Of a DNA stretch of 64,000 bases, positions 1,554 through 57,396 are shown piece after piece. The DNA lies in IMG/VR virus record IMGVR_UViG_3300033145_001156, positions 32,001 to 96,000 of that record; one strand, given 5' to 3'. How positions within the stretch are numbered: position 1 is the first letter of the stretch; every line of letters starts with the position of its first letter. The DNA is from a virus. Under the pieces are notes generated by a model. It saw nothing but the letters and a program-made list of their open reading frames with translations. It did not search any database and was not told the DNA's origin. The position numbers were made by a program, and so were the translations under genes.

Positions 1554-1565
1554 CTTTGCGCAAAG
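1554..1565. repeat. Dispersed palindrome CTTTGCGCAAAG (copy upstream of LexA-like gene)
   Basis: ACTTTGCGCAAAGT at 1553-1566, 10 nt before the GTG start at 1576. Confidence 0.9.
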
Positions 1566-1575
1566 TTTGGGGGAA

Positions 1576-1869
1576 GTGATGCTGAGGGCATGGGTATCTG
1601 AGAAGGACAGAGCGGAGATAGGCGACGTCCGGCTGCATCTGCTGGCGTACATCCAGGGGTATGTCGAGGGCCACGGCTATCCCCCGACTGTCAGGGAGAT
1701 CCGTGACGTGTCGGGGTTCGCCTCGACGAACACTGTCCAGTACCACCTGGACAGGTTGGTTGAGATGGGGCTGCTCACGAAGGTTCGCGGGAAGTCGCGG
1801 ACGCTGAGGATCACTGATGAAGCGAGGAAGAGAATTGCGTTCACGTGGGAGGATGATGATGCGAAATGA
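1576..1869 (+). CDS. LexA-type winged-HTH repressor lacking the S24 peptidase domain
   Basis: GYPPTVREI...GFASTNTVQYHLDRLVEMGLL...KSRTL matches the LexA DNA-binding domain; the protein ends at about 97 aa. Confidence 0.85.
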   Translation: MMLRAWVSEKDRAEIGDVRLHLLAYIQGYVEGHGYPPTVREIRDVSGFASTNTVQYHLDRLVEMGLLTKVRGKSRTLRITDEARKRIAFTWEDDDAK

Positions 1870-2019
1870 AGGTTCTGAAGGAGCATGGCTTAGCGCAGCT
1901 GCCCTGTTGGTGGTGTTGTTGGGATTAGGGTTGGAGGCATTGCGACCAGGATTGGGCGTCAATACAGCATTCTTGTTAGGCGCAATAGTAGGTGGCATGT
2001 TTTGCATCGTGATATACGG

Positions 2020-2970
2020 ATGAACCCGTTTGAGGCGGCGAGGGAGAAGGACATCGTGGACGTGATCGGTCGGGATGTGAGGCTGAGGAAGTCCGGCCAC
2101 GTCCACAAGGGGCTGTGCCCGTTCCACGATGACTATGAGCCTTCCCTGGTGGTCTATCAAGACTCATTCTGGTGCTTCGGTTGCGGCGTTGGTGGGTCAG
2201 TTATAGACTACGTGATGTTGCGGGAGCGATGTGGTTCGCTGGAGGCTGCGAGGAAACTGGTTGGCGGGAGCTTTCTCCCCTATGTGCGGCGGCCCGCCAG
2301 ACAGAAAACGATTGCGCCTGCCGTGCCTCGATGGGTTCTTGGATACTGGCACGGAAAGTTGCTGGCGGGCTGCCGCACGTACTTCCATTCGCGAGGGTTC
2401 ACGGACGAGACGATTGACTTGTTACAGTGGGGCTGGGATGGCAGGCGGTTCACGATCCCGGTCTGGGACGGAGTTCCTGGAGAGAGCAGGGTTCACCAGG
2501 TCGCGAGGAGGCGATGCGATGAAGTAGAGATGAGGCAGTTGAGGGAAGAGATGCCTGAGGCCGATGAGCAGACTTTGCGGGAGGCGCTCCCGCAGAAGTA
2601 TTTGAATATCTGGGGATATGGTGGAAATCATCTTTACGGCAAGTGGAGCCTGAAGGGGCCTGTTCTGTACGTGTTCTTTGGGTTGCTGACGGCGGCGATG
2701 GCGATCCAGGACGGACTTCCTGCGTGCAGTCCGAGCAACGGCGTCGGGAGCTGGCAGGATGAGTGGAGTCAGTATTTCCAAGAGGCTGACACGGTATGGG
2801 TTCTCCAGGACAACACGCCGTCCGAGAGGGACGCAACGCACCTGGTCGCGGCCAGCATCGGGGGTCATGCAAGGGTCGTGGTGACTCCTGGAGAAGGAGA
2901 CTATGCAGACTACAAAGTGGGTGGGGGTACTGTCAAGGAGTTCTTGGAGTACATAGAAAAGGAGAATTGA
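2020..2970 (+). CDS. DNA primase-like protein (CHC2 zinc finger plus degenerate Toprim)
   Basis: GLCPFHDDYEPS...FWCFGCGVGGSVIDYV CHC2 motif; C-terminal VLQDN...GDYADY Toprim-like region. Confidence 0.8.
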   Translation: MNPFEAAREKDIVDVIGRDVRLRKSGHVHKGLCPFHDDYEPSLVVYQDSFWCFGCGVGGSVIDYVMLRERCGSLEAARKLVGGSFLPYVRRPARQKTIAPAVPRWVLGYWHGKLLAGCRTYFHSRGFTDETIDLLQWGWDGRRFTIPVWDGVPGESRVHQVARRRCDEVEMRQLREEMPEADEQTLREALPQKYLNIWGYGGNHLYGKWSLKGPVLYVFFGLLTAAMAIQDGLPACSPSNGVGSWQDEWSQYFQEADTVWVLQDNTPSERDATHLVAASIGGHARVVVTPGEGDYADYKVGGGTVKEFLEYIEKEN

Positions 2971-2971
2971 C

Positions 2972-3577
2972 GTGGGGATAAGTCCAGCAGCATTGATGGC
3001 GTTGTTGAAAGGTGATTTTGAGAATGCGATAGTGGCCTCGACGCCAGGGGGCATTGAGGCTCAGGAGGCGGCAGGGCAGAAGAGCTTCGTGGCTGATACT
3101 ACTTTGCCCATCAAGTGTGATTATTGCACTCGGGAGCAGTTGGAGCAGATGGGGATAGTGTTTGGCGAACCCGTGGATGACTTGTTCGTAGAGGTGCAAT
3201 TACCCGAGGGGCGGAAGAAGGTTGCCACCTCGCATTCGATGCATTCTGATTTGTTGGATGACAGGGGGCGCAAGCGGGCGGGCATCTACTACAAAGCGGC
3301 CTTCTATGATCGCAGAGCAGGTATAAGTTTGGAGCATCGGTTTCATGTCTTTTCGGAACCCGTTGGTGGTTGGTCTGGGTATGACAGGCACACAACGCCA
3401 TTTATTGTGGTGATAAGAGACTGTGGTGAGATTGTGTGGGAGGCAGAGGTAGTTGGCCCCGTAGCTGAGGAGTATTCGGAAGGGGGCGTGTTTGAAAAGA
3501 AGTGGAAGATTGTGGCCAGACATTGGCTGGATGAGTACTATCCTGATTGGGAGAACCCATTAGCACATTGGGATTAG
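2972..3577 (+). CDS. Hypothetical phage protein
   Basis: 201-aa ORF with AGGAG RBS, adjacent to the primase. Confidence 0.7.
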   Translation: MGISPAALMALLKGDFENAIVASTPGGIEAQEAAGQKSFVADTTLPIKCDYCTREQLEQMGIVFGEPVDDLFVEVQLPEGRKKVATSHSMHSDLLDDRGRKRAGIYYKAAFYDRRAGISLEHRFHVFSEPVGGWSGYDRHTTPFIVVIRDCGEIVWEAEVVGPVAEEYSEGGVFEKKWKIVARHWLDEYYPDWENPLAHWD

Positions 3578-3579
3578 GA

Positions 3580-3591
3580 CTTTGCGCAAAG
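3580..3591. repeat. Palindrome CTTTGCGCAAAG copy
   Basis: Immediately after the TAG at 3575-3577. Confidence 0.9.
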
Positions 3592-3608
3592 CGCATGAAA
3601 GGGAGTTG

Positions 3609-3947
3609 ATGATGGAGTCCTTGGAGAAGAGGCAGTTGAGGATTTTGTTCTCAGCGGTTAGAAGGGCTTATGAGATGCTAACGACTGGCGGCGACATAGA
3701 TCGGATCGGGGCAGCAGCAAAGATTCTCCGCGAGGCGAACGAGGCCGTGATGCGGGAGGAAGAGTGGGTAACTCTAGGTGACCTTGAGAGTGGGTCTTTG
3801 TTTACAAAGGTTGACGGTGGATTATATCTCAAGAGAGCTGCCTTTAAAGACTATGCATATCCTTGTGTTGGGGTCGGTGATGGTGTTACGCATTACTTCG
3901 CACCCTCCATCGTAGTCCGTAAAATCCAGGCTCCGACAATAGATTGA
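3609..3947 (+). CDS. Hypothetical protein
   Basis: ORF with GGGAG RBS. Confidence 0.55.
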   Translation: MMESLEKRQLRILFSAVRRAYEMLTTGGDIDRIGAAAKILREANEAVMREEEWVTLGDLESGSLFTKVDGGLYLKRAAFKDYAYPCVGVGDGVTHYFAPSIVVRKIQAPTID

Positions 3948-3995
3948 TTAGAGGAGGAATGATGAACGCGTTCAAGACTGAGGGGATGGTGAATA

Positions 3996-4898
3996 GTGAA
4001 GATAAGTTCTATCGGCTGGTGTGACTACTCAGGAGGAAGCCTAAATATAGTGGTTCGCGGTTCTGCCAAGGGAGATTGTGAGTGTGGTCCTGGCTGTACG
4101 AATTGTTATGTCAAGGCTTTTGACAACAGGTTTCATTTCCTGCCCGAGAGGACGATGTGGTATCCTGATAAGCTGAAGAAGCTGGCGACGATGAGGTTCC
4201 CCGAGTTCAGCCCGAAGCGGGGTGCGCCTCACAGGCCGATGTGCTTCGTGGCCGATACTGGAGACCTGTTTCATGAAGATGTACCAGACTTGTTTCTGAT
4301 GCACGTATTTGATGTGCTCCGTGGTAGGCCAAATGTCATTTGGCAGATACTCACGAAGCGCCCGCGCCGCATGGGGGACATCATAACAAGGTATTGTAGA
4401 GACCGTGCTAACATAGCAAGATTGCGAGACAGCATTTGGTTGGGCGTCTCTATCTCCAACCAGCGCACTGCCGACGAGCGAATCCCGATCTTGCTAGACA
4501 TACCGCCAGCGGCGAGGTGGGTTAGTATAGAGCCAATGTTGTCAGCGATGGACATCTTGCACTATCTGGACGGATGCCCTGAGCCTTGCGGCGGCGGTCA
4601 TCTGGGTTACGTCTCACATGACATGGCTATTGATGCAGAGTGCCCAGAATGGGAAGGCGCGAGCCTTGGCTACCAAGAGCCAGAATGGGTACAGACAGCC
4701 CCATGCCTGGACTGGGTGGTATTAGGCGCAGAGAGCGGTTCGAATCGGCGGCCTTTCAAAGTGGAGTGGGCTGCTGATATTAAGCAACAATGCGATGCAG
4801 CTGGTGTGGCCTTTTTCGGAAAACAGGACAGTGGATTGCATCCAGGCAAGCCGCTGTTGGTGGACGGGAGAGAATGGAAAGAATGGCCAAAGATATAG
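3996..4898 (+). CDS. DUF5131 / phage Gp37-Gp68 family protein
   Basis: IGWCDYS, CxxGCxNCY, DLFHE, WQILTKRP, WLGVS, VSIEP, DWVVLGAESG and FFGKQ motifs. Confidence 0.9.
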   Translation: MKISSIGWCDYSGGSLNIVVRGSAKGDCECGPGCTNCYVKAFDNRFHFLPERTMWYPDKLKKLATMRFPEFSPKRGAPHRPMCFVADTGDLFHEDVPDLFLMHVFDVLRGRPNVIWQILTKRPRRMGDIITRYCRDRANIARLRDSIWLGVSISNQRTADERIPILLDIPPAARWVSIEPMLSAMDILHYLDGCPEPCGGGHLGYVSHDMAIDAECPEWEGASLGYQEPEWVQTAPCLDWVVLGAESGSNRRPFKVEWAADIKQQCDAAGVAFFGKQDSGLHPGKPLLVDGREWKEWPKI

Positions 4899-5278
4899 AT
4901 ACATCTAGCTCATTCAAATTAGATATATATGTCTCTCCATTTCTTCCGATATATTTTCCAGCCAAGAATGAGGGAGAACTAGATTCAGTATTGCATCAAG
5001 TACAATTACCAAATAACCGTGTAGTTGTTAGCGAAGAGCTAATGGAAGAGATAAAAAGAACAGTGATGGGTGAAAAGATAGACTATGACATGGCATGTAC
5101 TTACATAGAATCACTAACAGACGCTAGGCCCAATTCACTTGACGAGGCAGAGTTAGAAGTCTTTGCCCTAGCGGTTGATGAGTATGAACAGATTCATTAC
5201 CCTATTGATTTGCCTAATCCTATTGAGGCAATTAAGTTTCGTAAAGAACAGGAGCAAATAGATGAGTGCCAACCGTGA
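4884..5278 (+). CDS. Protein ending in a HigA-antitoxin N-terminal-like domain (no HTH)
   Basis: YDMACTYIESL...ELEVFALAVDEYEQIHYPIDLPNPIEAIKFRKEQ resembles the HigA N-domain. Start is uncertain (4884 or 5066). Confidence 0.6.
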
Positions 5279-5425
5279 TATAGACGGCAAACTCAAGCAG
5301 AAGTTTGGTGACACTGAGCCACACGTTGGTGATTGGAAGCCTAAGAAGCCTAGGTTAGTCATTGGATGTCTATTGCCAGTGCTGATATTGGCTAGTATAA
5401 TCCTTAGTATATTGTGGATGCTATA

Positions 5426-6235
5426 ATGGCTGAGATATCTATCTTGATGAATGGGGTTGGCGTAAGGGCAACATTGAATAAGCGCAAGACTCAGACTCGT
5501 AGACTTATCTTACCTCAACCTACTGGTAAAAACCTAGAGATATTAGAGCGTAGTTATGGTGGTGATTGTGATATTGATAACTATTATCAAGCATTAACCG
5601 CAGATGATATGGGTTACGAATCCACTACGTTACGTTGTCCGTTTGGGGGTTATGGAGACTTTCTCTACGTTCGGGAGACTTGGTGCAAGGTGCTGACAGA
5701 AGTCCATTACACGGGAGAAGGTCATGGGGGTGATAGTGATCTTTGCTGTGGGTATAGAGCTACGATGACTTACACGTGTGGGAAGCCCATGCCTGAGAAC
5801 CCGTTTCGCAAGTGGAAGCCTTCTATTCACATGCCGAAGAAACGTGTTAGGCTGTGGTTAGTTAATGAAGGAACTGGGGTTGAGCAAGTTCAGGATATTA
5901 GTAAGGCTGATGCAATTGCAGAGGGAATACAGTGGAGCAAAGCATTTCCAGAAGGTTATACAATAGACGCCTCAGAAGACTTGGATGGCTCTATGGTTGG
6001 TGGTAATTATGAGATTTGCTCTTATGATGCTATACAGTGTTTTAGTAAGCTATGGGATTCAATCTATGCTAATCCTCGTCCGGTGCGCATCAAGGGTGTG
6101 ATTGACCATTATGTAAGTTATCCCTGGGATGATATTCGGGAGGTCAGTGAGCATCGGGGTAAGCTATGGTTCATAATAGGTAACGCATGGTTGTGGAAAC
6201 TAAGATATAGAATTAGAGAGAATAGTAATAAGTAG
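5426..6235 (+). CDS. ASCH/PUA-like phage protein (RKTQTRR ... PSIHMP family)
   Basis: ILMNG..VRATL..RKTQTRR, GDFLYVRETW, WKPSIHMPK and VQDISKADAIAEG motifs. Confidence 0.75.
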   Translation: MAEISILMNGVGVRATLNKRKTQTRRLILPQPTGKNLEILERSYGGDCDIDNYYQALTADDMGYESTTLRCPFGGYGDFLYVRETWCKVLTEVHYTGEGHGGDSDLCCGYRATMTYTCGKPMPENPFRKWKPSIHMPKKRVRLWLVNEGTGVEQVQDISKADAIAEGIQWSKAFPEGYTIDASEDLDGSMVGGNYEICSYDAIQCFSKLWDSIYANPRPVRIKGVIDHYVSYPWDDIREVSEHRGKLWFIIGNAWLWKLRYRIRENSNK

Positions 6236-6247
6236 GGAGAAATAAAT

Positions 6248-6484
6248 ATGAGTAGACAGTACAAGCGCGTATGTGACAATTGCCTAGACGAAATGATAGA
6301 GATGTGGGGTTGGTGGCGGGTTGAGAGAGTGAGGCGATATCCCTCTCCAGAGGTAAGTCATGCTTATTTGACTGAACCCAGAATAGAATGGGATTTCTGT
6401 AGTCAAGAGTGCATGGTAGAAAAAGTACGAGAATGGACAGAGGAACAGGCAAAGCTAGCGCGGCTGAGAGCAAGTGGTGATTAA
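6248..6484 (+). CDS. Small Cys-rich hypothetical protein
   Basis: CDNC...FCSQEC; GGGAG RBS. Confidence 0.55.
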   Translation: MSRQYKRVCDNCLDEMIEMWGWWRVERVRRYPSPEVSHAYLTEPRIEWDFCSQECMVEKVREWTEEQAKLARLRASGD

Positions 6485-6641
6485 GACAGAGACTGACTAT
6501 CTCAACGCCCTGTCAATGGCTGAGGCATGGATGGATGCCGAGCCTGGGTCAAAAGAGGAAGACATGCTGAGACTATTAGTGGAAGACATTATCGCATATG
6601 AGGAGGTTCACTATCCGATGGGGGAAGATGATGAAGCTTGA
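6477..6641 (+). CDS. 54-aa HigA N-domain-like mini-protein (absent from the ORF track)
   Basis: Manual translation: VIKTETDYLNALSMAEAWMDAEPGSKEEDMLRLLVEDIIAYEEVHYPMGEDDEA; overlaps neighbouring genes at both ends. Confidence 0.65.
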   Translation: MIKTETDYLNALSMAEAWMDAEPGSKEEDMLRLLVEDIIAYEEVHYPMGEDDEA

Positions 6642-6820
6642 GCATAAACCGCCAGAAACAGAAGAAGAGATAGACACTTATCTTCGACTACATGGCTATG
6701 ATCCGAGGGAAGTCGCTAGGTGGGGTAAAGAGATAGCGACGTTAGCGATGTTAAACGTGCAGGTAGCAAGAGTAAGGAAGCTCCTAGAGTGGCTGTTGGG
6801 AGAAAAGCGAGTGGAGGAAG

Positions 6821-7195
6821 ATGATGGAGATTGAGCGGATGCGACGGATATTGGCAGAACGGTGCATGGGCTGGCACAAAATGGAGATGGAACTTGAACT
6901 TGGTGCACGAGCGATATATTGGGTGGACGCAAGTGGCGAGGCTAGGGCTAGCGTGTCACGCTGGAAGCCTGATCAAAAGTGGCAAGACTGCTTACTTACC
7001 ATTGAGGAAATGCGGAAGGCAGGATGGAAGGATGACCTAGCATGGCTTCCTGACGGTACATTTCGGGTACGTTTCAATCGTGGCGATGCATGGGGCGAGT
7101 CATGCAATGTGGTAGATGGTGAATTGTCAGAGCCACACGCTCGTATGCTTGCCGCCGCCCGCGCCCTGGAATCGGAGAATACTGATGGACACTAA
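6821..7195 (+). CDS. Phage ABA-sandwich-like protein, paralog 1
   Basis: LAERCMGW...WKPD...IEEMR..GW...ARMLAAARAL. Confidence 0.55.
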   Translation: MMEIERMRRILAERCMGWHKMEMELELGARAIYWVDASGEARASVSRWKPDQKWQDCLLTIEEMRKAGWKDDLAWLPDGTFRVRFNRGDAWGESCNVVDGELSEPHARMLAAARALESENTDGH

Positions 7196-7541
7196 GCAGA
7201 TGCGGGAGACGCTTGCGACTAGGGCGATGGGTTGGGTATGGAATGAGTTCGAGGGGTTGGAGATGTGGGGAATCCTGAGCCACGGGGGGATAAAATTGGA
7301 GTGCTGGCTTGATGATTGGGAGCCAGATAAGAACGGTAAGCAGATGATGGATGTTATCGAGAAGATGCGGGAGAAGGGGTGGCGCTGCGTCGTGAACGAT
7401 GCTCTCTACCCGACTATCACGGCGGTCTGGTGGCGCAAGGACAATATATTCTGCCAGTTCGACGCCAAGGGTGAATCGGAATGCGAAGCTCGTATGTTGG
7501 CCGCAGCTCGTGCCCTGGGGATGGAGGATAGTAATGGCTGA
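7185..7541 (+). CDS. Phage ABA-sandwich-like protein, paralog 2
   Basis: LATRAMGW...WEPD...IEKMREKGW...ARMLAAARAL; a tandem paralog of 6821..7195. Confidence 0.55.
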   Translation: MDTKQMRETLATRAMGWVWNEFEGLEMWGILSHGGIKLECWLDDWEPDKNGKQMMDVIEKMREKGWRCVVNDALYPTITAVWWRKDNIFCQFDAKGESECEARMLAAARALGMEDSNG

Positions 7542-7697
7542 ACAAATAAACTGTCCGCGGTGCTTATCTATTCAAGTACAATCGTGGTGGGGATGTTGGC
7601 GCTGCATGGATTGCGGGCACAAGTGGTGGCGATTCGCGGGATTCAAGAAGATACACATGGGAATCTCAACGGTGGGCAGATGGGAGTCGGGGGAATA

Positions 7698-8128
7698 ATG
7701 GATGAGCATGTTCAGCAGGGTGGGTTGCGCGGTGAAAAGGTTCAGTACCCAGATGGCGTTGGTTGCTGTGTTTGGTATCCCTGGGAAGATGACACAGACA
7801 CAGGATTGTGTTTTGACTTCCCTGAAGAAGACATAGATGATTTGATAGTACTACTTCAGAAGCTCAAGGTAGTAGAAGCCAGGACATATAAGGAGGAAGA
7901 ATGATGAGCATTGATCTGCCGAATGGTTCTGTGATAGGTAGTAATTATTATGTGCAGGGCCGGTTGCGCGGAGAGAGGGTTCATGGCGGGTATCGTGTTT
8001 GGCGTCCATTTGAGGATGATCCGTGGGTGTTTGTACATTGTGATTTTTCAATGAAGGACTTGGATGATTTGATAACCCTTTGTCAAGTATTTAAGAATAT
8101 GGAAAAGGAGGAGCGGGAGTGTCAGTAA
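7698..8128 (+). CDS. Two small related hypothetical genes (7698..7904 and 7901..8128)
   Basis: Both contain LRGE[KR]V, W.P[WF]EDD and DF...D[IL]DDLI.L. Confidence 0.5.
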
Positions 8129-8373
8129 AATTGCAGGAAGTACGATATGGTACGAATGATATTGGTGTTGCCATAGAAATCAGGGAGGCCCAAAATGGGG
8201 GACTTGTACCCAGAATGATCATTAGAACTTACGGAACCCTGGAGGATGACAATACAGGAGTATTGAAGTTAAGCCTAGATTCTTGGGATGTTGTGAAGGC
8301 TGTTGGCAATGAGGTGTTTGCCGCATGGCAGATGCTTGACAAGTGATTTACGGGGAGACGGGAAGGAGGAAGA

Positions 8374-8793
8374 GTGATGAGCGCTGATCTGCACATTCAC
8401 GTGTACGAGGGGTTGACGAAGGATGACCTGAGAAGGTTTTTCAGTCACACGATGGGGTCGAAGTGGTTCACACTAAGTAATTTGTGGACTCCGGAGGAGC
8501 ACCAGGAGAGTTCCAACAAGATGATGGATAGTCCTGACGTCTGGGTGGGCAGCGTTTCATGGCTCAAGGCGGCACTTCTTGAGGACGGGGACAAGTACAT
8601 CCCGTCACCCGTCATGAAAGTGAGTGAGATCGTCGGGGAGGATCTGCCCGTGGTAGATGATGTATTGATCGGGCGGATCAAGGAAGCGCTGGCGCTGGAG
8701 AACACGACGGGTTACAATGTGGCGTCGCCGGAGACGGTTGTTGCGTTTCTGGAGGAGCATCGCGGGAAGCGGGTCTTCACGATCAGTTGGTAG
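8374..8793 (+). CDS. Hypothetical phage protein
   Basis: 139-aa ORF with GGAGG RBS. Confidence 0.6.
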   Translation: MMSADLHIHVYEGLTKDDLRRFFSHTMGSKWFTLSNLWTPEEHQESSNKMMDSPDVWVGSVSWLKAALLEDGDKYIPSPVMKVSEIVGEDLPVVDDVLIGRIKEALALENTTGYNVASPETVVAFLEEHRGKRVFTISW

Positions 8794-9060
8794 GGAGGTG
8801 TCTGTGAGAGTGCGGGATTTGCGAGGTCTTGATGGATTGGGTGTGCTAGTTAAGAGAAGCTCTAAGCTCAAGAATGTCGAGCGGGATTTCCAAGAGCAGT
8901 TGGCAGAGGCGGTCGAGAAGTTCAGGGAGAAGATGGGAGAAGAACCTAACACCATCCTGCTGGGGGTCCAGTTCGCTAGCTACGAGACGGGGATGGAGAC
9001 GCTGGTGAGTAAAGATGCCCCATTTTCAGGGTTCATTCTCTATAATATCCCTGACGTCCC

Positions 9061-10425
9061 ATGAAAATCTCTGAACTGGAGGAGGCGGTCATCGCGGCCT
9101 GCATGGCCGACCCGGAGGCGATGGCGGAGGCGGCGTCGAGCCTTCCGGAGGACAGGTTCGGGACTCACCAGGAGGTCTATTCGGCCATGCTGGAGATGTT
9201 CTTCGCCGGTGGCGGGATCGACCTGATAGGGCTGGCGAAGCAGATCGGGCCTGACCTGGACTCGGTCGGCGGGGTCCCGAAGCTGCGCTACCTCAAGCGG
9301 TCGATGGAGAGGCTGGACGTGAGGCCGGGCGGCTGGCGGAGCTGGATCAAGCTCGTGGGCGGGGCTGGCCAGTTGAGGCAGATGGCCCTGTTCGTGGATG
9401 GGTACCACGAGAAGCTGTCCGACCTCGACAGGGCGCTGATGGAGATACGGGACGTTGAGCAGTTCATGTCCGCGTTCTCGACCAAGTTCCAGGCGTCCCT
9501 GGGGGGTGACAGTGGCGGGCTTCGTCCGATAGGCGAGTTCGTCGAGGAGTGGAAGGGCATCATCGGCGACAAGCTGGCTGGGAAGGTCGTGGACAGGATC
9601 CCGACTGGCTGGCCGACGTTCGACTCGGTATTCGGGGGGTTCCCGATGCCGGGCCTGGTCATATTCGCGGGGCTGCCGGGGACCGGCAAGACTCAGTTCG
9701 CCATACAGGTCGCCGTGGACATCGCCCGGAGGATAAGGGACACGGGGCAGAAGGGCTGCGTGGGGATATTCTCGATAGAGATGAAGGGCAGCTCCTTGGT
9801 CAACAGGATCATCTGCGCGGACATGGGGCTGGACACGAGGAAGATCAATTCATGCCTGGAGGACTGGCGGGCATCCAGGCTGTACGAGGCGGGCGACGGG
9901 CTGGCCGCGCTGCCTTTGTACGTCGACCCTTCAGACATGGTGACTTCCGAGATGATCTCCTACCGGGCCGCCGCACTCCACATGAGGCACGGACCCTTGA
10001 GATTCCTGGTCATCGACTTCGCAGAGCTCATCGGAGACAAGCGCATGGAGTCTGAGGAGCTGAGGGTGTCTGGGATATACCGGAATGCGACCTCGCTGTC
10101 GAAGACACTCGACATGACCGTCATGCTGCTGGCGCAGTACAACCGGGGGGTCGCTGCGAGGGACACTAAGCTGGGGGGGAACTCCGACATACGGTACTCG
10201 TCCTTCGCGGAGATAACGGCGTCGATGATACTCCACGGCTACAACCCGGTGCAACTGCGAAAGATGGGGGTCAGCCTGAGGACGCCGAAGGACTATCCCG
10301 GCATAGAAGGTAGGGCATATGTGTTCTGCGGCAAGCATCGCGAGGGGCCGACAGGCATCATAGAGCTGGACTGGAACCCGAGTTCGACGTTCTGGTCGGA
10401 CCCGCAATCGGAGGGGGCATTTTGA
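9061..10425 (+). CDS. dnaB: DnaB-like replicative helicase
   Basis: IPTGWPTFD, Walker A GLPGTGKT, FSIEM, VIDF, LAQYNR and KHREGPTG motifs. Confidence 0.92.
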   Translation: MKISELEEAVIAACMADPEAMAEAASSLPEDRFGTHQEVYSAMLEMFFAGGGIDLIGLAKQIGPDLDSVGGVPKLRYLKRSMERLDVRPGGWRSWIKLVGGAGQLRQMALFVDGYHEKLSDLDRALMEIRDVEQFMSAFSTKFQASLGGDSGGLRPIGEFVEEWKGIIGDKLAGKVVDRIPTGWPTFDSVFGGFPMPGLVIFAGLPGTGKTQFAIQVAVDIARRIRDTGQKGCVGIFSIEMKGSSLVNRIICADMGLDTRKINSCLEDWRASRLYEAGDGLAALPLYVDPSDMVTSEMISYRAAALHMRHGPLRFLVIDFAELIGDKRMESEELRVSGIYRNATSLSKTLDMTVMLLAQYNRGVAARDTKLGGNSDIRYSSFAEITASMILHGYNPVQLRKMGVSLRTPKDYPGIEGRAYVFCGKHREGPTGIIELDWNPSSTFWSDPQSEGAF

Positions 10426-10925
10426 TGATCAAGGGAGAGTTCCATAACGTAGACATCAACTTGGGATACGAAAGGCTCGCGAAGGCTATCGTCGTGGGTG
10501 GGCTGCGAGGGTGGAATTACAAGTTCCTCGCCTCCGACTGGTGCTTGGACTTGTGCCTGATGGTGGACTGGGACAGGGACGAGCTGGTGCGGAAGCTGAG
10601 GAAGGTTGAGAAGCGGGAAGGGCCGTGCTGGTGGAAGCTGCGGCGGACATGCGATGACTGTGAGAAGCCGATAGCCGACTGGAACAAGTCTGGATACTGC
10701 AAACTTTGCGCAAAGTCTCACAGGAAGCGTAATGACCATAACTATGGCAGGGCCAGGATGTGTCTGAAGTGTGGTGGGCGAATAACCAATAACGCGAGAT
10801 TATGCAGGACGTGCGAGAACAAGAGGAGGAGAAGTGCTGGACTTGACGGTGGCGGACAGGCAGTTGGCGTTCACGAAAACTGTGTTGGGGAGGATGGAGG
10901 AGTTCGAACACAAGGACATAATTGA
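10422..10925 (+). CDS. Cys-rich (multi-CxxC) hypothetical protein
   Basis: Four CxxC pairs; coupled to the dnaB stop; contains a palindrome copy at 10704. Confidence 0.55.
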   Translation: MMIKGEFHNVDINLGYERLAKAIVVGGLRGWNYKFLASDWCLDLCLMVDWDRDELVRKLRKVEKREGPCWWKLRRTCDDCEKPIADWNKSGYCKLCAKSHRKRNDHNYGRARMCLKCGGRITNNARLCRTCENKRRRSAGLDGGGQAVGVHENCVGEDGGVRTQGHN

Positions 10926-11532
10926 GGCGACCAGGGTGCAATGCGGACTCCTGTCCGATTGGAAGACTGTCGAGCGGAAGGCCGCGTTGAACATGATGAT
11001 CGGCGTCTACACGCTGGATTTGTTGTGGCGGGAGCTGGGGAGCGATGACGTGTACTCGTTCTATGAGCAGGCTCCATGGTGTCCGATAGAAGAGTTCAAC
11101 TACTCGTTCGAGCAGTTCATGGACAGGGCCTTCGAGCTGGACTGGGCCACGGTGAGGAACTGGTGCAGGGTGGCGGACACGTGGCTCATCAATCCCCCCA
11201 TGATTGAGTTCAAGCCGGAGGAGGTAGAGCCTTCCAAGCTCTTGCTGTTCACAGCAAAGGAGCGCAAGGGGGAGATGACGGAGGAGGACTACGAGGTGCT
11301 GGGGAGCGGGTGCTCGTGGAGGAAGATGCGGCAGCACCTCTTGGTGAGCAGGCACGGGGAGAGCCCGATGAACGACAGGGTCATCATCCTGGACGGGGGG
11401 ATACTGTGGGCAAAGGACGGCAGGGGACCGAGGGTCGCGATAGGGAGTTTAGAAGTCGATGAAGAGGATGATCTTATAAGATGGGGGGTAGAGCGGATCG
11501 TTAAGGCGGCGGGTGTGAAGATAAGGGGATGA
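10834..11532 (+). CDS. Hypothetical protein
   Basis: 232-aa ORF with GGAGG RBS and high-GC3 codon usage. Confidence 0.65.
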   Translation: MLDLTVADRQLAFTKTVLGRMEEFEHKDIIEATRVQCGLLSDWKTVERKAALNMMIGVYTLDLLWRELGSDDVYSFYEQAPWCPIEEFNYSFEQFMDRAFELDWATVRNWCRVADTWLINPPMIEFKPEEVEPSKLLLFTAKERKGEMTEEDYEVLGSGCSWRKMRQHLLVSRHGESPMNDRVIILDGGILWAKDGRGPRVAIGSLEVDEEDDLIRWGVERIVKAAGVKIRG

Positions 11533-11800
11533 GACTGGGGCCATATCTTTTGGGATAGAGCGGACGAGGCTGGTTTTCATGGCTGTCTAAGGCCGCTAGG
11601 AACTATTCTCTTTGGAAAGTAGAGAGCTTGGAGAAGTTAGTTAGGTAATAAGTGTTAGTTTACGAGAGCAGCGGGACGTAGAAGGAAGGAGATGAAATAA
11701 TGTTGGAAGTGTTGGAAGTAGAGAGGTTTTTCCAGGTGGTTGGAATGTGCGTTGTGTTTGGTGGGCTGATTTGGGTTTTCGGGTCAGTCGTAGTTGATAT

Positions 11801-12109
11801 ATGGAGAGGCAAAGCATGACTCAGAAAGAAAGGACGGCGGACATGGGAGAAGAGGGTGTGAATCGGAAGTCGTTGAGGTTGTATGGTTATGAGGTGGCGA
11901 GAGACTATGGCATGCGGGTTAGATCATCATCTGATGCTGTGTATTTACACTTATGTGACATAGCCAACGACGACAAGCTATACGTGACGCGCATAACGTT
12001 GTTTAGGTTACAAGAGATCATTGCTGACGCGATGCAGCTATTCAAGCAGGCAGACGAGGTAGAAAAAGCACAAATAGCTGAACGAGAAGAGGTGAGTGTG
12101 CTAGAATAG
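11801..12109 (+). CDS. Hypothetical protein
   Basis: ORF in an AT-richer segment. Confidence 0.45.
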   Translation: MERQSMTQKERTADMGEEGVNRKSLRLYGYEVARDYGMRVRSSSDAVYLHLCDIANDDKLYVTRITLFRLQEIIADAMQLFKQADEVEKAQIAEREEVSVLE

Positions 12110-12162
12110 GTTGGTTAGGCGAACTGGTTAATTGGTTGACATTGACGATAAGCATGAATGGA

Positions 12163-12174
12163 CTTTGCGCAAAG
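12163..12174. repeat. Palindrome CTTTGCGCAAAG copy (intergenic)
   Basis: GGACTTTGCGCAAAGCGCA between ORFs ending at 12109 and starting at 12194. Confidence 0.9.
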
Positions 12175-12193
12175 CGCAAGAAGGGATTAAACC

Positions 12194-12526
12194 GTGAGGA
12201 TTGAGACTAGATTTATAAACCAGCTTTTGAATCAAATACAAAAGAGTAGATTCTATGATGGAAGCTATACTTACGTAGACCCTCTCTTATTGGTTCGTCA
12301 CAAGTTGGAATGCCTACGGGATGGCCGAGAGTGTAATCCTCTTAATGATTATGATGCCAGACTGTTGTTGAGGGCCATTAGGACAAATAGGGATCACGTT
12401 ATAGAACATGATCGGTCCGAAGCGATAGAAAAGCTGCTTGACAAGATGTACCAAATTTGTGTTCATGGTGAGTGGGCGCATCCTGGGGGAATCGTTGGCG
12501 ATCCCCGGGCGGAGGGCGCGGGTTGA
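12194..12526 (+). CDS. Hypothetical protein
   Basis: 110-aa ORF. Confidence 0.5.
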   Translation: MRIETRFINQLLNQIQKSRFYDGSYTYVDPLLLVRHKLECLRDGRECNPLNDYDARLLLRAIRTNRDHVIEHDRSEAIEKLLDKMYQICVHGEWAHPGGIVGDPRAEGAG

Positions 12527-12610
12527 GCCAGCATAAGTAGTGCATATGGTTCTAATCCGTTTTCTGCGAAGAGACTGGATGGAATACAGAAGAAGTTATT
12601 TGAGTAACCC

Positions 12611-12639
12611 TTGACAATTCGGGGTATTTGTATTATAAT
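12611..12639 (+). promoter_or_regulatory. Consensus sigma70-type promoter
   Basis: TTGACA(12611)-17 bp-TATAAT(12634), then AAGGAGGTG RBS and ATG at 12660. Confidence 0.85.
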
Positions 12640-12659
12640 TCAGGCAAGGAGGTGGAGAT

Positions 12660-12863
12660 ATGACTCACAAGGTGATATACAAGATGAACCTGAGGGGGGA
12701 CGGGCGATTGGTGGAGTTCCTTCAGCCCTTCCTGGCCAGTTACGTCGAGGAGAAGCTGACCCTGGGCAGGGCGAGGAAGTTCAAGTCTGCGCTGGAGATC
12801 ATCTTCGGAGACGCCGTGACCGTCCAGACGGCCAGCCTGCCGATCAGCATCAAGATTCTGTAA
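12660..12863 (+). CDS. Small hypothetical protein under its own strong promoter
   Basis: Perfect RBS and promoter. Confidence 0.7.
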   Translation: MTHKVIYKMNLRGDGRLVEFLQPFLASYVEEKLTLGRARKFKSALEIIFGDAVTVQTASLPISIKIL

Positions 12864-12873
12864 TGCTCTTCAC

Positions 12874-13179
12874 GTGAAAAAGTGGCAGAAGAGGATCTGG
12901 CAGGAGGTCATCGACCGGGATGAGGGGTTGTGCTTATACTGCGGAAGGCAGGGATGTCAGGTCCATCATGTCACGCCACGGTTGCGCTATGGTAAAGAGG
13001 GCAAGAGGAAGGGCGGCCCATTGTGGCAGTTGAAGAACATGTGCTGTGTGTGTTTCAGGTGCAACGTGGAGGCGCACACGAGGGGGATGAGGATCAGGGC
13101 CATGGAGATTCTGCACCAGCGATTCGAATATGACTACTCTGACGGGCCATGGGCGGAATATGGGGTGGGCGATGGATGA
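12874..13179 (+). CDS. HNH endonuclease
   Basis: RDEGLCLYCG...QVHHV..R...NMCCVCFRCNVEAH. Confidence 0.8.
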   Translation: MKKWQKRIWQEVIDRDEGLCLYCGRQGCQVHHVTPRLRYGKEGKRKGGPLWQLKNMCCVCFRCNVEAHTRGMRIRAMEILHQRFEYDYSDGPWAEYGVGDG

Positions 13180-13448
13180 CAAGGACTTCCGGGAGATTGA
13201 TGCTTATCTCATTTTCCAAAGGAAGTTAGCGGAGGAGACGGAGAATGCTGGCAAGATGGTGGCGGGGTTTTTCAACACCCTCGTTCAGCATGGCGTACCA
13301 GAACAATGGGCAGCATACATGACCTCATTCTACTTTTGGGCACTGACGCAGAAGGGGAAATGAGCGGAGACCGGTTCGACTTGGTTGGGGGCTTCCTGAT
13401 CTTGATGCTCGCAGTCGTGGTGGTGTTGGCGATATGGGGAGGTTGCAG

Positions 13449-13514
13449 ATGAGAGAACTGCCGATCTTGCTTAATGGCGAAATGGTACGGGCGACGATGG
13501 AGGGGCGCACTTGA
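13449..13514 (+). pseudogene. 21-codon 5' stub of the ASCH/PUA-like gene family
   Basis: MRELPILLNGEMVRATMEGRT* matches the N-termini of 14354 (IRELPVLMNSSM) and 5426 (ISILMNG..VRAT); it is cut off at the endonuclease promoter. Confidence 0.7.
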
Positions 13515-13539
13515 CAACTAGAGTAGTCTGTACTATACT
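13511..13539 (+). promoter_or_regulatory. sigma70-type promoter of the LAGLIDADG gene
   Basis: TTGACA(13511)-17 bp-TATACT(13534); GAGGAGG RBS before ATG 13578. Confidence 0.75.
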
Positions 13540-13577
13540 ATACCTGAGAATGTTTAGTCCATGAGGAGGTATAGGGC

Positions 13578-14369
13578 ATGATTAACTGGCAGGATAAGGA
13601 CTGGTCATATTTACTAGGCGTTATACATGGCGATGGATGTATCGCCCCGCGCAGCATAAATATTGCTGTAGGATATGGTGATCGGGACTACGCAGATGTG
13701 TTAATGTCTTTATGGGAATCGTTGGGATATTTTCCCAAGTTGTACCGCCCACGCTCTGCACTTAGGGTAAGCGTTCACAGCAAAGTGTTGCGTGATGAGA
13801 TAGCGCCATTCAAGCAGAAAGGTATTTGGTCATGGCCGGAAGGGTTGCAGGAGTCGGAATATCTTTCTGGGGTATTCGACTCTGATGGATGGGCATCTTT
13901 GGCGGGCGGTAGTAAGAAGATTGGTATTACACTCAAACGGAGCGGAAATCTTAAGAGACTAGCTGCCTACCTGGGTCATTTGGGAATTCCTAGAGTAACC
14001 GTTCAAAATAGAGTAACAAGCTATAAGGGTCGCCCCTACGAAATAGAGAGAATACTCATTTGTGATTCAGCAAGGATTGTTCAGCTCGGAGCCTTGTTGA
14101 ATTTTCGTAATGCTAGAAAGGCAGGCATGTTTGATGCGGTTTATCAACATGCTAAGAACTATTTGAATCGGGTCCCACTGTGGCGCGAGGTAGGATTATG
14201 GCTAATGGAAGAGTCTAGAGATTGGCGCGAAATTGCCAAGAAGTTTAATTTGTCGAAGGCTCAAGTTGATAGTGTCCTGCAGAACTTACGCCAGAACGCA
14301 GACGTTCAGACAACGCCCCAGGTAGTAATCTTGACGAAATACGAGGTGAGGGAGTGGCGAGACAAATAA
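13578..14369 (+). mobile_element. Free-standing LAGLIDADG homing endonuclease (two motifs, C-terminal HTH-like region)
   Basis: YLLGVIHGDG and YLSGVFDSDG motifs; lower GC than flanks. Confidence 0.85.
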
Positions 14370-14986
14370 GAGAACTTCCCGTGTTAATGAATAGCTCTAT
14401 GACTATAGCGACAATGGCCAGGACGAAGACGATGACTCGCAGGCCGATGAGGCCGCAGCCTGAACATGATGCGCGATACACTCACCAGCCCCAGCGGTTG
14501 GTTTGGAGGGCGCGTAGTGGATGGGAAGGCATCATGTGGGAGCCGTGGAAGCTAGGACATCCCCGGCCAGGATATGAGCACGTTGCCAAGCAGGGGCCAT
14601 ACGGAGTCCCCGGCGACTTCCTCTATGTGCGGGAGACGTGCCGGGCTGAGGAGCTTGAAAGCGGCCTCGACGGTATACGTTACTTGGCCGACAATGCCTT
14701 CATCGAAATCGAGGATAGTCTAGAAGCGGGCAAGCGCTGGAGCCAGATGTACCATTATCGAGGGGGCGAGGGGCTGACTATTCCCAGTATCCACATACCC
14801 AAGTGGGCCACACGGACGTGGCTGGTGAATACGGGCGTGGGAGTGGAGCGCGGGCCAGAGATCACGGAAGCCGATGCGAGGGCCGAGGGGTTCGAGAGCG
14901 CCGACGCGTTCATGATCTGGTGGGAGAATCAATACCCTGGAATGGACTGGCGGTTCGTGACTAGCTACGAGGTGATAGAGCGATGA
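14354..14986 (+). CDS. ASCH/PUA-like phage protein, paralog of 5426..6235
   Basis: KTMTRR, GDFLYVRET, PSIHIPKWATR and ITEADARAEG motifs. Confidence 0.75.
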   Translation: MARQIRELPVLMNSSMTIATMARTKTMTRRPMRPQPEHDARYTHQPQRLVWRARSGWEGIMWEPWKLGHPRPGYEHVAKQGPYGVPGDFLYVRETCRAEELESGLDGIRYLADNAFIEIEDSLEAGKRWSQMYHYRGGEGLTIPSIHIPKWATRTWLVNTGVGVERGPEITEADARAEGFESADAFMIWWENQYPGMDWRFVTSYEVIER

Positions 14987-18234: not shown

Positions 18235-18263
18235 TTGACTAGAGCGCCGTTTTGTGGTAGAAT
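18235..18263 (+). promoter_or_regulatory. sigma70-type promoter with extended -10
   Basis: TTGACT-17 bp-TAGAAT with TGn immediately before the -10. Confidence 0.6.
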
Positions 18264-55199: not shown

Positions 55200-55831
55200 A
55201 GGTGTCGGTGGACCTGGACAAGTGGTTGGATGAGTACCCGTGGTACCGGGACGTGCTGGACGTCCTCGACGACTACCAGGAGGGGCCTGAGACGGCTGCC
55301 CTCTGGACGCCGTGGAAGGGCGGGCTGTGGATGAAGGAGCGGGTCTGCGAGATCGCGGAAGTGTGCGCGGAGAGGTTCCCTGGGGACTTCATCGAGATCG
55401 GGGCCTACCTGGGGCAGACCACGAGGGGGCTGGCGGAGGTGGCCAGGGAGCACGACCGGCGGGTGGTGGTGATAGACCCGTGGGACCCGGACTCGCTGTG
55501 TTGCCAGGGCTGGGAGTACAACGTGTTCCTGCGCAGCATCAGGGGGTACTCGGACATCATAGACGTCTACCGGCTGTCTTCGTTCGAGGACGAAGCCATC
55601 GAGATCATCGAGGGCAGGGAGCTCGCGTTCGCGTTCGTGGACGGGCTGCACATCTACGAGGCGGCGCTGTCGGACATCAAGGCATGCGCGCACTGCCATG
55701 GGGTCATAGCCGTGGACGACCTGCCGAACTGCATTGACGTGTGGGACGCGTTCATGGAGGGCGTCGAGGTGACTAGGAGGGTTCCGTTGTGGAGGAAGTA
55801 TCATCGTGAAGGCTATCTATTGCCACGTTGA
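55193..55831 (+). CDS. Class I SAM methyltransferase (Methyltransf_24-like)
   Basis: IEIGAYLG, IDPW, FVDGLH.YE and GVIAVDD motifs. Confidence 0.8.
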   Translation: MLKVSVDLDKWLDEYPWYRDVLDVLDDYQEGPETAALWTPWKGGLWMKERVCEIAEVCAERFPGDFIEIGAYLGQTTRGLAEVAREHDRRVVVIDPWDPDSLCCQGWEYNVFLRSIRGYSDIIDVYRLSSFEDEAIEIIEGRELAFAFVDGLHIYEAALSDIKACAHCHGVIAVDDLPNCIDVWDAFMEGVEVTRRVPLWRKYHREGYLLPR

Positions 55832-56408
55832 ACCGCCGGAAGTTGACATCATAATACCAACGCTGAATTTCAGGGCAGCATTAGACAACTATCACGGTTG
55901 GCCCGATCCTGGCGTGGAAACTTGGTGGTTGACAGTCATGGTAGATGAAAAACAAGAAGGGTTCACTCGGACAGTCAACCGTGGACTTGCCGAGACGAAG
56001 TCTCCGTACATCTGTATTATAGGGGACGACGCGGTCCCAGAGACCGAGGGTTGGCTGTTAGAACTGAGGAAGGCGCTGGAGGAGGGGTACGGGTTCGCGT
56101 TCCCGACCATGCCTTGCAGGACGGCTCCCATATCGAAGGCGAGGAGGGCGTCCCCGACAGGGCAGTTGGTGGAGATACCCCACGGGCCTTACGGGTGCGT
56201 CCTGATGAAGAGAGAAGTCTTGGGGGAGGTCGGGCTGCTGGACGAGGCGTTCGCGCACTACGGGTCGGATGTTGACCACCAGAGGCGATCTAGTTTCAAG
56301 TCGGTGTGGGTTGCGCACGTGTACGTCCGCAGGGAGCTGCACGAGCCGAGGGAACCCTGGTGGACGGAGGACGGGATAAAATTCCGTGAAAGGTGGGGAG
56401 ATCGATGA
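55806..56408 (+). CDS. GT2-like glycosyltransferase
   Basis: DIIIPTL, GFTRTVNRGL, IGDDA and VGLLDEAF.HYGSDVD motifs. Confidence 0.82.
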   Translation: MKAIYCHVEPPEVDIIIPTLNFRAALDNYHGWPDPGVETWWLTVMVDEKQEGFTRTVNRGLAETKSPYICIIGDDAVPETEGWLLELRKALEEGYGFAFPTMPCRTAPISKARRASPTGQLVEIPHGPYGCVLMKREVLGEVGLLDEAFAHYGSDVDHQRRSSFKSVWVAHVYVRRELHEPREPWWTEDGIKFRERWGDR

Positions 56409-56559
56409 GATGTTATCTGAGAGGCACGTCATAGTTGGGGTTGCTGAACACGGTACTAGGATGTCTTGTCAATCGTGTGCTCATCAAGGTATGTGACAGC
56501 AACACCAAGAAAATCGTAGGTTGGCGGTGGGGCAAGGCAACAGATTTTCCTAGGAAAGC

Positions 56560-57396
56560 ATGATGAGGATTGGGTGGATTTTTGATCAGGCGCTATCGCT
56601 CCACACGGGCGGGCAGATGCTTTCCAGCAGGCTGCTGCTGAGGAGGTCACCAGGCTGGGCCGACGTGAAGGTCATATCGCCGTACCACGACAGTTGGCTG
56701 GGCGAGTGCGACGCATACATCGTGAACCAGTGCCGGTACTTCAGGCCCGACCAGTTGGCGAGGATCATGGAGAAGCCGTACATCTGGCTGTTCCACGACG
56801 CGCTGCACAACTGTATGCACCAGGGGTTCATCCTGAAGGCGCTGCTGAGGAAGGCGACGGGCTGCATGTTCAAGTCGCCTTCCCACCAGGAGAACGTGTG
56901 CGGCAAGTGGCCGGAAGCGAAGGAAGTCCCCGGGAAAGCGGTCTACGCGACGCCGATAGACCTGGACATGTTCTACCCGGGGGAGAAGACGAGAGGCACG
57001 ATCTGGCTGGGGAACTACGTGCCGGAGAAAGGCGTGAGAGAGGCCGTCGCGTGGGCCGAGGAGAACGAGGAGGTCGTGGACTTCTTCGGGTTCGGGGACG
57101 CGTTCATGTTCAGGATAGCCAGCCCCTGGGCCAGGTTCTATCCGGTGCTGCCCTACAGGGAGGTGCCGCAGATCCTCAGGCGGTACGAGAGGCTGGTGTT
57201 CCTGCCCAAGTGCCCAGAGGCCGCCGGTCGGGTGGTGGTGGAGGCGCTGCTGTCGGGCTGCGAGGTGGTCACCAACGACATGATCGGGTTCAAGTCGTTC
57301 GACTGGTGGTCGGACGAGCCAGGGACTTTGCGCAAAGCGCTGAGGGAGCGAGAGGGGGAATTCTGGGAGACGGTCAAGGAGATGTTAGATGGATAA
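56560..57396 (+). CDS. GT4-like glycosyltransferase
   Basis: GGQ N-terminal motif, PEKGV and PEAAGRVVVEALLSGC. Confidence 0.82.
   Translation: MMRIGWIFDQALSLHTGGQMLSSRLLLRRSPGWADVKVISPYHDSWLGECDAYIVNQCRYFRPDQLARIMEKPYIWLFHDALHNCMHQGFILKALLRKATGCMFKSPSHQENVCGKWPEAKEVPGKAVYATPIDLDMFYPGEKTRGTIWLGNYVPEKGVREAVAWAEENEEVVDFFGFGDAFMFRIASPWARFYPVLPYREVPQILRRYERLVFLPKCPEAAGRVVVEALLSGCEVVTNDMIGFKSFDWWSDEPGTLRKALREREGEFWETVKEMLDG

Follow-up and report, generated by a model that had tools for sequence, protein, structure and literature searches.

Short palindromes dispersed through a genome and placed at gene junctions recur in unrelated phage lineages, such as the Cluster O mycobacteriophages and SPbeta, and their reader and purpose are known for few of them. 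In Cluster O, a 17-bp repeat with dyad symmetry, TGTTCGGNNNCCGAACA, is present in more than 30 copies at gene junctions, separate from the SigA promoters (Cresawn et al. 2015, PMC4351075). The stoperators of Cluster A, read by gp71 in phage L5, are asymmetric 13-mers recognized by the monomeric, two-domain immunity repressor of a temperate phage; they block elongation, and one stoperator/operator copy overlaps the early promoter (PMC9283540). The regulatory cassettes of T4-type phages known as PeSLs combine a terminator stem-loop with a strong early sigma70 promoter (Arbiol et al. 2010, PMC2839356). The dispersed intergenic repeat SPBRE of SPbeta was known from in silico prediction for decades until its reader, the master repressor MrpR, was identified (PMC10516654). 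Finally, the SAS of Cluster K mycobacteriophages is an asymmetric 13-mer that contains the Shine-Dalgarno (SD) sequence, and the related ESAS has 17-bp arms with a variable spacer; these inverted repeats upstream of the SD were judged likelier to be DNA-protein sites than RNA hairpins (PMC3203893). Here we analyze a 12-nt palindrome, CTTTGCGCAAAG, dispersed through a window of 64,000 nucleotides, i.e. bases 32001-96000 of the 105,622-bp virus record IMGVR_UViG_3300033145_001156. It belongs to this known and poorly understood class, and what is specific to it is its orientation, its tight packing between stop codon and SD, the documented crossovers at its copies and the availability of two testable candidate readers.

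The record of this phage (hereafter G000) is complete and bears a 114-bp terminal repeat. Positions refer to the window unless they are given as genome positions or carry the prefix G. The window contains ten perfect copies of CTTTGCGCAAAG, versus none in 100 dinucleotide-preserving shuffles, and all ten positions given in a preliminary description of this DNA proved correct. The one-mismatch copies (18456, 27197 and 42363) and the two-mismatch copies (16890, 18944 and 24288) reported there were also recovered as listed; additional two-mismatch matches at 11404, 23662 and 51685 are about what is expected by chance (1.9 at up to two mismatches). The whole genome of 105.6 kb holds 18 perfect and six one-mismatch copies, and these 24 form the denominator of the fractions given below. 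CTTTGCGCAAAG is by far the most repeated word of the genome, and its inner 10-mer is the only palindromic 10-mer with at least three copies.

Alignment of the 24 copies reveals that the complete element is an oriented sequence of 15 nt (counted alternatively as 15-16 bp), RRGA-CTTTGCGCAAAG-Y. The dinucleotide GA precedes the core in 20/24 copies and its mirror image TC follows the core in only 4/24, while position +13 is T or C in 23/24; hence, the asymmetry of the flanks postulated earlier is real. The right flanks fall into two classes. The first, CGCA(A/G)GAAAGGGAG, runs directly into an extended SD of the AGAAAGGAGG type, and the second, TTT, TCT or TGA followed by GGAGG, also runs directly into an SD. 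The extended SD carried by the CGCA-class flanks (e.g. 3592-3605 and 37974-37986), AAGAAAGGGAG, implies a host 16S rRNA whose 3' tail ends in ..CCUCCUUUCU, a small clue to the identity of the host.

The placement of the element is as distinctive as its sequence. An SD-led start lies 6-26 nt downstream of 13/24 copies (whole-genome background 0.13, p=2e-6), the stop codon of a long frame lies at most 10 nt upstream of 8/24 (background 0.037, p=1.6e-6), and both features occur together in 6/24 (background 0.006, p=6e-9). The earlier remark that copies sit after stop codons or before ribosome-binding sites thus describes a non-random pattern. Copies within genes are indeed read in all three frames (DFAQS, LCAK and TLRKA), as had also been stated, but in most of these "intragenic" cases the enclosing open reading frame (ORF) ends only 44-78 nt further on, and the next gene begins there. 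Three quarters of the copies (18/24) fall in the first 60 kb, among the replication and accessory genes, and 6/24 in the 45-kb virion half. The genes behind them are mostly small ORFans, and five single genes of G000 are flanked by copies on both sides, the gene of the anti-defence protein Tad6 among them. The copies of the window with their surroundings are as follows:

1554-1565, + strand: perfect copy at a typical junction; stop of a 53-aa ORF 6 nt upstream, SD and ATG 1579 of a LexA-type winged helix-turn-helix (wHTH) gene 13 nt downstream.
3580-3591, + strand: perfect copy, CGCA class; stop of ORF 2972-3577 2 nt upstream, followed by the extended SD and ATG 3609/3612.
10704-10715, + strand: perfect copy in a stretch of about 400 nt after DnaB with only a doubtful ORF; flanked by AA, not GA; not a clean junction.
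12163-12174, + strand: perfect copy, CGCA class; GTG 12194 of a 110-aa ORF 19 nt downstream.
18456-18467, + strand: one-mismatch copy; ATG 18480 of Tad6 12 nt downstream, promoter at 18235 upstream; left bracket of the Tad6 cassette.
18968-18979, + strand: perfect copy that closes the Tad6 cassette on the right, 2 nt past the stop of the gene; a decayed two-mismatch copy is at 18944.
24288-24299, + strand: two-mismatch copy, TTTTGCGTAAAG; a complete junction, with TAGGA as the left flank and, on the right, an SD and ATG 24314 (14 nt downstream).
27197-27208, + strand: one-mismatch copy; GTG 27228 of gene A 19 nt downstream; in the related fragment L056 (see below), the left flank of 28215 is followed by the right flank of this copy.
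27790-27801, + strand: perfect copy; ATG 27814 of gene B 12 nt downstream; L056 has the same left flank and different DNA after it.
28215-28226, + strand: perfect copy in the 3' end of gene B; ATG 28244 17 nt downstream, the start of segment C, homologous to L056 2653.
37962-37973, + strand: perfect copy after the portal gene; GTG 37993 of gene Y 19 nt downstream; L056 has an extra gene X here.
42363-42374, + strand: one-mismatch copy within ORF 42163-43239.
42462-42473, + strand: perfect copy within the same ORF 42163-43239, followed by an SD and the in-frame ATG 42505; it may mark an internal start or a former junction.
57326-57337, + strand: perfect copy; ATG 57389 lies 51 nt and the stop of ORF 56560-57396 59 nt downstream.

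A role that the preliminary description had missed, namely that of a recombination joint, emerges from the comparison with L056, a fragment of a close relative (portal protein 89% identical) and the one close relative with which motif-bearing junctions were compared. It conserves the element, with four copies (at most one mismatch) in 9 kb versus 0.18 expected. At its copy 1836, the left flank of G60215 is joined to the right flank of G59197; therefore, genes A and B stand in swapped order in L056, and the crossover lies within the motif. Copy 2430 has the left flank of G59790 in front of it but different DNA behind it, and copies 4757 and 5260 flank gene X, which follows the portal gene of L056 at the place where G000 has a single copy (37962). 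Decayed half-copies are visible at two further joints of L056. Overall, a copy is found no more than 25 nt from 4/18 ends of the alignment blocks shared by G000 and L056 (p=1.3e-3). In this natural pair of relatives, the copies are actual crossover points. Not every rearrangement involves them: a 7.6-kb glycosyltransferase/FkbM cassette encoding a Ser/Thr-rich protein of 1197 aa (28600-36200) is absent from L056 (3012-3032), where segment C directly adjoins the portal promoter, so that the cassette is a recent gain or loss; this indel, like other breakpoints, is not bounded by copies of the motif. The Tad6 gene illustrates the relationship between copies and cassettes:

18480-18965, + strand: gene of Tad6, an inhibitor of type I Thoeris (PF25188, E=2.7e-54), with its own promoter at 18235; a single-gene cassette between two copies.

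The homolog of this gene in an unrelated phage has no motif next to it, which indicates that the site belongs to the junctions of this lineage and not to the gene.

The element cannot serve as promoter of the gene that follows, because the start codon follows only 10-24 nt past the site, and no -10 sequence is found at the proper distance. Promoters of G000 form a separate family with consensus sigma70 features, aacccTTGACAatt-N14-(tgtg)TATAAT, comprising five perfect and about 12 near-perfect members:

12611-12639, + strand: member of the sigma70 promoter family, aacccTTGACAatt-N14-TATAAT; the palindrome is not the promoter of this phage.
Genome 2806, 18422, 22650, 31417 and 44611 (the last being the member at window 12611): members of the same family, in addition to the approximately 12 near-perfect ones.

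None of these about 17 strong promoters contains a copy of the palindrome; copies G2746 and G23732, situated at operon ends, are followed by strong promoters at a distance of 60-67 bp. Neither a sigma factor nor a NusG-like factor was detected in the phage, nor was a single-subunit RNA polymerase in a search that had no positive control; together with the separate promoter family and the proximity of the starts, this led us to reject the element as a promoter for a phage polymerase or sigma factor. Within the promoter family, AACCC upstream and ATT downstream of the -35 hexamer are also conserved, which suggests an added recognition element or a site for a regulator of their own.

An intrinsic terminator can be dismissed as well, as the site has neither a stable hairpin nor a run of T; terminator-like hairpins occur at chance level in positions 1-20000 of the window, and therefore the copies are situated inside long operons. 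At the RNA level, the core alone folds with 0.0 kcal/mol, pairing of core with core appears in the minimum-energy fold of only 6/24 copies, the CGCA-class copies favor a shifted hairpin, and no compensatory changes are seen in the variant copies. The suggestion that the GCGC core may be a methylation target is not supported: GCGC occurs at 584 sites in the genome and is not enriched (observed/expected 1.12), about 4% of these sites are in the motif and 96% are outside it, and the related motif of a distant phage, described next, has centers other than GCGC. Methylation of GCGC can therefore not be the point of the motif.

Among 80 relatives identified by TerL (43-56% identity), a complete 99-kb phage, G001, carries 28 copies of CTTTTG-YR-CAAAAG, versus none in shuffles. 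Both motifs are built around an inner TTTG-NN-CAAA and tolerate variation at the two central bases, which in G001 are mostly CA, TG or TA. Four of the G001 copies lie exactly in the 17-bp spacer of promoters of the type TTGACT/TTTACT...TATAAT/TATACT (background 0.001, p=1.7e-8), and others are found at stop/SD junctions. The spacer copies occupy the classical position of an operator, upstream of the transcript start, and this supports a site read by a protein at the level of DNA. Apart from TerL, DnaB, primase and a few other proteins, BLAST and phmmer revealed nothing in common between G001 and G000; with so distant a relationship, the resemblance of the palindromes could be convergent. G001 also contains four near-identical units, each consisting of a promoter, the embedded palindrome and a conserved leader of about 40 nt (gtgtaag..ttgattgg), which could be small-RNA or leader modules:

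Genome of G001, 32246, 33857, 81203 and 86201 (L145:12246, L145:13857, L148:1203 and L148:6201): promoter/palindrome/leader units.

Other TerL relatives, L130/L131 (the 162-kb phage G002) and L123/L125, have dispersed palindromes of their own, including CTGAATATTCAG (four copies, three of them within 240 bp) and TTAGCGCTAAGG (four copies in 21 kb). The latter is close to the operator of KorB, TTTAGCSGCTAAA. Two more fragments exhibit repeats of other kinds, L107 (6287-8604) with four copies of a sequence of about 45 nt, ggttgtcgtgtccatgTAGACAATCTATCGgat, spaced by 630-850 bp, and L074 (3306-3426) with four tandem, iteron-like repeats of 36 bp. The matches to TTTG-NN-CAAA in L069 look like chance. 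No relatives were found by scans with DnaB, the wHTH protein or the promoter pattern, a scan of metagenomes yielded a single uninformative locus, and the closest cultured phages reach only 44% identity in TerL. In 55 other viral contigs the 15-mer GGACTTTGCGCAAAG is present once each, roughly as often as chance predicts, and the motif is absent from contigs of metagenome-assembled genomes with a related TerL (Acidobacteriota, Actinomycetota and Chloroflexi).

Which protein might read the element? Dispersed palindromes of 13-16 bp composed of a T-run, a GC core and an A-run, namely parS, the Noc site NBS and the KorB operator OB, are read by proteins that combine ParB_N with a helix-turn-helix (HTH) domain. 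A protein of this kind is encoded outside the window, and a copy of the motif precedes its gene as well as that of the LexA-type wHTH protein. The genes relevant to this question are:

1579-1869, + strand: candidate reader, 96 aa, a LexA-type winged-helix DNA-binding domain only, with no peptidase domain.
Genome 14345-15907, outside the window: candidate reader, 520 aa, ParB_N and HTH_ParB fused to an N6/N4 DNA methylase.
19697-20185, + strand: ParB-like N-domain protein put forward in the preliminary description; a weak candidate.
20152-21195, + strand: C5-cytosine DNA methylase; GCGC is not specifically tied to the motif.

The 96-aa protein matches PF01726 and LexA structures and has seven metagenome homologs, 71-83% identical, which also consist of the DNA-binding domain only; the recognition helix comes in the variants S-T-N-T-V and T-T-S-L-V. 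In the methylase fusion, ParB_N (37 bits) and HTH_ParB (30 bits) are of the chromosomal type, and the alignment to Spo0J/Noc reaches E=6.5e-13; a partial GxxR box (GGTR) is retained, and the methylase occupies the place of the usual C-terminal dimerization domain. This architecture is unusual. The protein at 19697 has no detectable HTH and no detectable relative in the PDB. A clear HTH of the Cro/CI type was not found, PF01381 yielding only sub-threshold matches, and neither G000 nor G001 has a match to the tyrosine or serine recombinases (PF00589, PF00239). BLAST, phmmer and Pfam searches (PF01726, PF02195, PF17762, PF01381) disclosed no reader shared by G000 and G001. We regard the fusion and the wHTH protein as possible, rather doubtful readers between which there is nothing to choose, and some other phage or host protein as somewhat more plausible than either.

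We tentatively propose, with slightly less than even confidence, that the element is the docking site of a dimeric DNA-binding protein of the phage, a stoperator-like roadblock or organizer that also serves as a joint for short-homology crossover. A network of protein-binding sites had been suggested before, and it is still the best reading, given the lack of a consistent RNA fold and of promoter function and the copies in operator position in G001. According to our proposal, long operons holding the sites would be read by the host sigma70 RNA polymerase, and a lineage-specific, oriented site packed between the stop of one cistron and the extended SD of the next would allow the phage-encoded dimer to dock, in many copies, in the only free space between cistrons. 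Occupied copies would then work at the level of DNA as roadblocks or insulators that elongating RNA polymerase meets between cistrons, in the way of stoperators (PMC9283540). Alternatively, they might be loading or organizing sites distributed over the whole genome, as parS, NBS and the KorB OB are. The same copies double as short-homology crossover points through which related phages would exchange, acquire and lose genes. The site and the SD together make a repeat of 15-30 nt that occurs about 24 times, so the copies are natural substrates for short-homology recombination, and this explains the shuffling seen with L056, as is the case for PeSLs in T4-type phages (PMC2839356). The genome encodes a Sak4-like AAA_24 ATPase (445 aa) followed by an RNaseH-fold exonuclease (257 aa; genome 6692-8799), which likely constitute a recombination module and could drive such exchange.

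Several observations weigh against this proposal. The copies are not better conserved than their surroundings between G000 and L056 (three substitutions among 36 core bases vs. a background of about 11%). With a core of 12 bp, the centers of the half-sites are separated by only about 7-8 bp, a short distance for a classical HTH dimer, unless such a dimer also reads the GA/TC flanks. The operator position is seen in the distant G001, while no copy of G000 lies in a promoter. The families of both candidate readers are undetectable in G001 and G002, which carry similar palindromes, so that the phages would have different readers or rely on a host factor, unless their palindromes resemble each other by convergence. 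Finally, all copies have a single orientation, which cannot be specifically linked to transcription, because all convincing genes of the phage are on the + strand as well and the two directions are not separable; the GC skew is +0.15 to +0.5 nearly throughout the genome, and a putative block of minus-strand genes at G27.6-30.4 kb is spurious, as the skew stays positive there. The left flank is free to be optimal, but the right one must pass into the SD, and this alone may account for the orientation.

The crossovers themselves invite a reading in which recombination is primary, the copies are dedicated joints for the exchange of gene cassettes, and a protein bound to them would act in recombination. 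Single genes that lack a promoter but bring their own SD would then be exchanged, permuted, inserted and deleted, with an outcome like that of integron cassettes or of the PeSL shuffling in T4-type phages. The breakpoints on copies in the G000/L056 pair (the swap of A and B, the bracketed gene X and the changed right flank at L056 2430; p=1.3e-3), the decayed half-copies at L056 joints, the five bracketed single genes including Tad6, and the concentration of copies in the accessory/early 60 kb (18/24), mostly in front of small ORFans, are what such a system would leave behind. We nonetheless consider it unlikely, as the short-homology recombination of phages is expected to produce crossovers at any repeated sequence of 15-30 nt, whatever its purpose, while neither G000 nor G001 has a tyrosine or serine recombinase, attC is much longer than this site, which moreover lacks a spacer, the 7.6-kb indel and other breakpoints lie away from copies, and the site does not travel with its gene, as the motif-free Tad6 homolog of the unrelated phage shows. 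A signal at the RNA level, such as the site of a translational regulator, an endonucleolytic processing site or a 5' stabilizer after cleavage, appears less likely again. The element is strictly co-oriented with genes and lies 1-9 nt from the SD, the A-to-G change at position 9 in two variant copies would keep a U-G pair, and the similarly placed SAS/ESAS of Cluster K have been discussed in relation to translation (PMC3203893). However, the core alone is unfolded, the copies have no structure in common and no compensatory double changes, perfect dyad symmetry without a loop is typical of double-stranded DNA sites, four G001 copies lie in promoter spacers upstream of the transcription start, and G2746 and G23732 precede strong promoters by 60-67 bp at operon ends.

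Slightly lower still we rank the possibility that the palindrome is a host-type repeat or the box of a host transcription factor, the target of a phage methylase, or a nicking site like those of T5, phiKMV and tf. A common host factor would explain why G000 and G001 share TTTG-NN-CAAA but no detectable DNA-binding protein; on the other hand, the 55 viral contigs with a single 15-mer each are about what chance provides, and the motif is missing from the metagenome-assembled contigs with a related TerL. The phage encodes two DNA methylases as well as HNH and LAGLIDADG endonucleases, and the T5 nick consensus R/GCGCRGG (PMC3517423) resembles AGCGCAGG, which stands just after two CGCA-class copies; yet GCGC is not enriched and is found 96% outside the motif, the centers of the G001 copies are mostly CA, TG and TA, and known nick motifs are asymmetric and restricted to one strand, while cleavage at a palindrome would affect both strands. 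The least probable of the explanations considered here is that the copies are parS-like loading sites for the fusion of ParB, HTH and methylase and mediate self-protection of the entire genome. The ParB module would dock at the approximately 24 sites, perhaps clamping and sliding, and carry the fused methylase along newly made phage DNA, so that protection would be rapid; the junctions would simply be the places where a 15-bp site is tolerated in a genome that is 90% coding. The parS-like role suggested in the preliminary description may still hold, with this fusion as a better candidate than the HTH-less protein at 19697.

Two features lie apart from these questions. Free-standing homing-endonuclease genes are present in the early region, one of the LAGLIDADG_3 type (263 aa, 13578-14369) and one of the HNH_3+AP2 type (158 aa, genome 9048-9524). 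A mini-array at genome 25219-25309 (L150:5219-5309) consists of two identical 29-nt repeats around a 33-nt spacer, beside a solo TnpB; exact matches to the 24-nt core of its repeat were absent from 185,579 prokaryote genomes, and the idea that TnpB and the spacer target the motif was discarded, as the spacer is unrelated to the palindrome.

How, then, does the element relate to the systems described previously? With the ParB-family sites it shares the T-run/GC core/A-run layout, and G000 does encode a module of ParB_N and HTH (E=6.5e-13); however, the module is fused to a methylase, no ParA was seen (none was searched for), and G001 and G002 have palindromes but no detectable ParB. The SAS/ESAS of Cluster K are likewise tied to translation starts, located in the non-structural half of the genome and present in a single orientation, but they are an SD-containing asymmetric 13-mer and a repeat with 17-bp arms, in contrast to the palindromic core found here. 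The integron attC is 57-141 bp long, has imperfect inverted repeats and is associated with a tyrosine recombinase, whereas our site has 12-16 bp and no spacer, in a phage with no match to PF00589. The nick motifs of T5, phiKMV and tf have an asymmetric consensus on one strand, unlike a palindromic core that reads the same on both.

The remaining analogies are closer. Like the stoperators of Cluster A, the element occurs in more than 20 copies (24 in this case), in short intergenic spaces and in one orientation. The analogy drawn in the preliminary description therefore holds for number, placement at junctions and orientation, and it fails in other respects: the core is a perfect 12-bp palindrome of which only the flanks are asymmetric, instead of an asymmetric 13-mer; none of the about 17 promoters of G000 carries the site, promoter copies being confined to the distant G001; and neither an integrase (PF00589, PF00239) nor a CI-type repressor was found. 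SPBRE is another dispersed intergenic repeat of a phage, but SPbeta is temperate and its reader has the fold of a degenerate tyrosine recombinase, whereas PF00589 was not detected here. Similarly to PeSLs, short repeated intergenic elements flank small non-essential ORFans, and recombination between copies explains indels, replacements and shuffling, as observed between G000 and L056; unlike PeSLs, the element contains neither a promoter (-10) nor a terminator stem-loop. The Cluster O repeats are also dyad-symmetric, present in dozens of copies genome-wide, located between ORFs or at gene ends and distinct from the SigA/sigma70 promoters, and both phages have glycosyltransferase genes among the virion genes. 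The differences are that the 6-bp arms are not separated by a spacer in G000, that its copies share a single orientation (while that of the Cluster O repeats is not meaningful), that the site abuts the SD, and that crossovers are documented.

The present case thus adds to this class an oriented packing between stop and SD, a clear separation from promoters, and copies that serve as crossover points. If both the binding and the roadblock prove to be true, stoperator-like control would extend beyond the temperate actinobacteriophages to a large, apparently non-integrating phage, and regulation would be mechanistically tied to the mosaic evolution of genomes. In form, the closest known counterparts of the element are the 17-bp repeats of Cluster O; in its proposed action, they are the stoperators and SPBRE with MrpR; and in its evolutionary consequence, they are the PeSLs of the T4-type phages.

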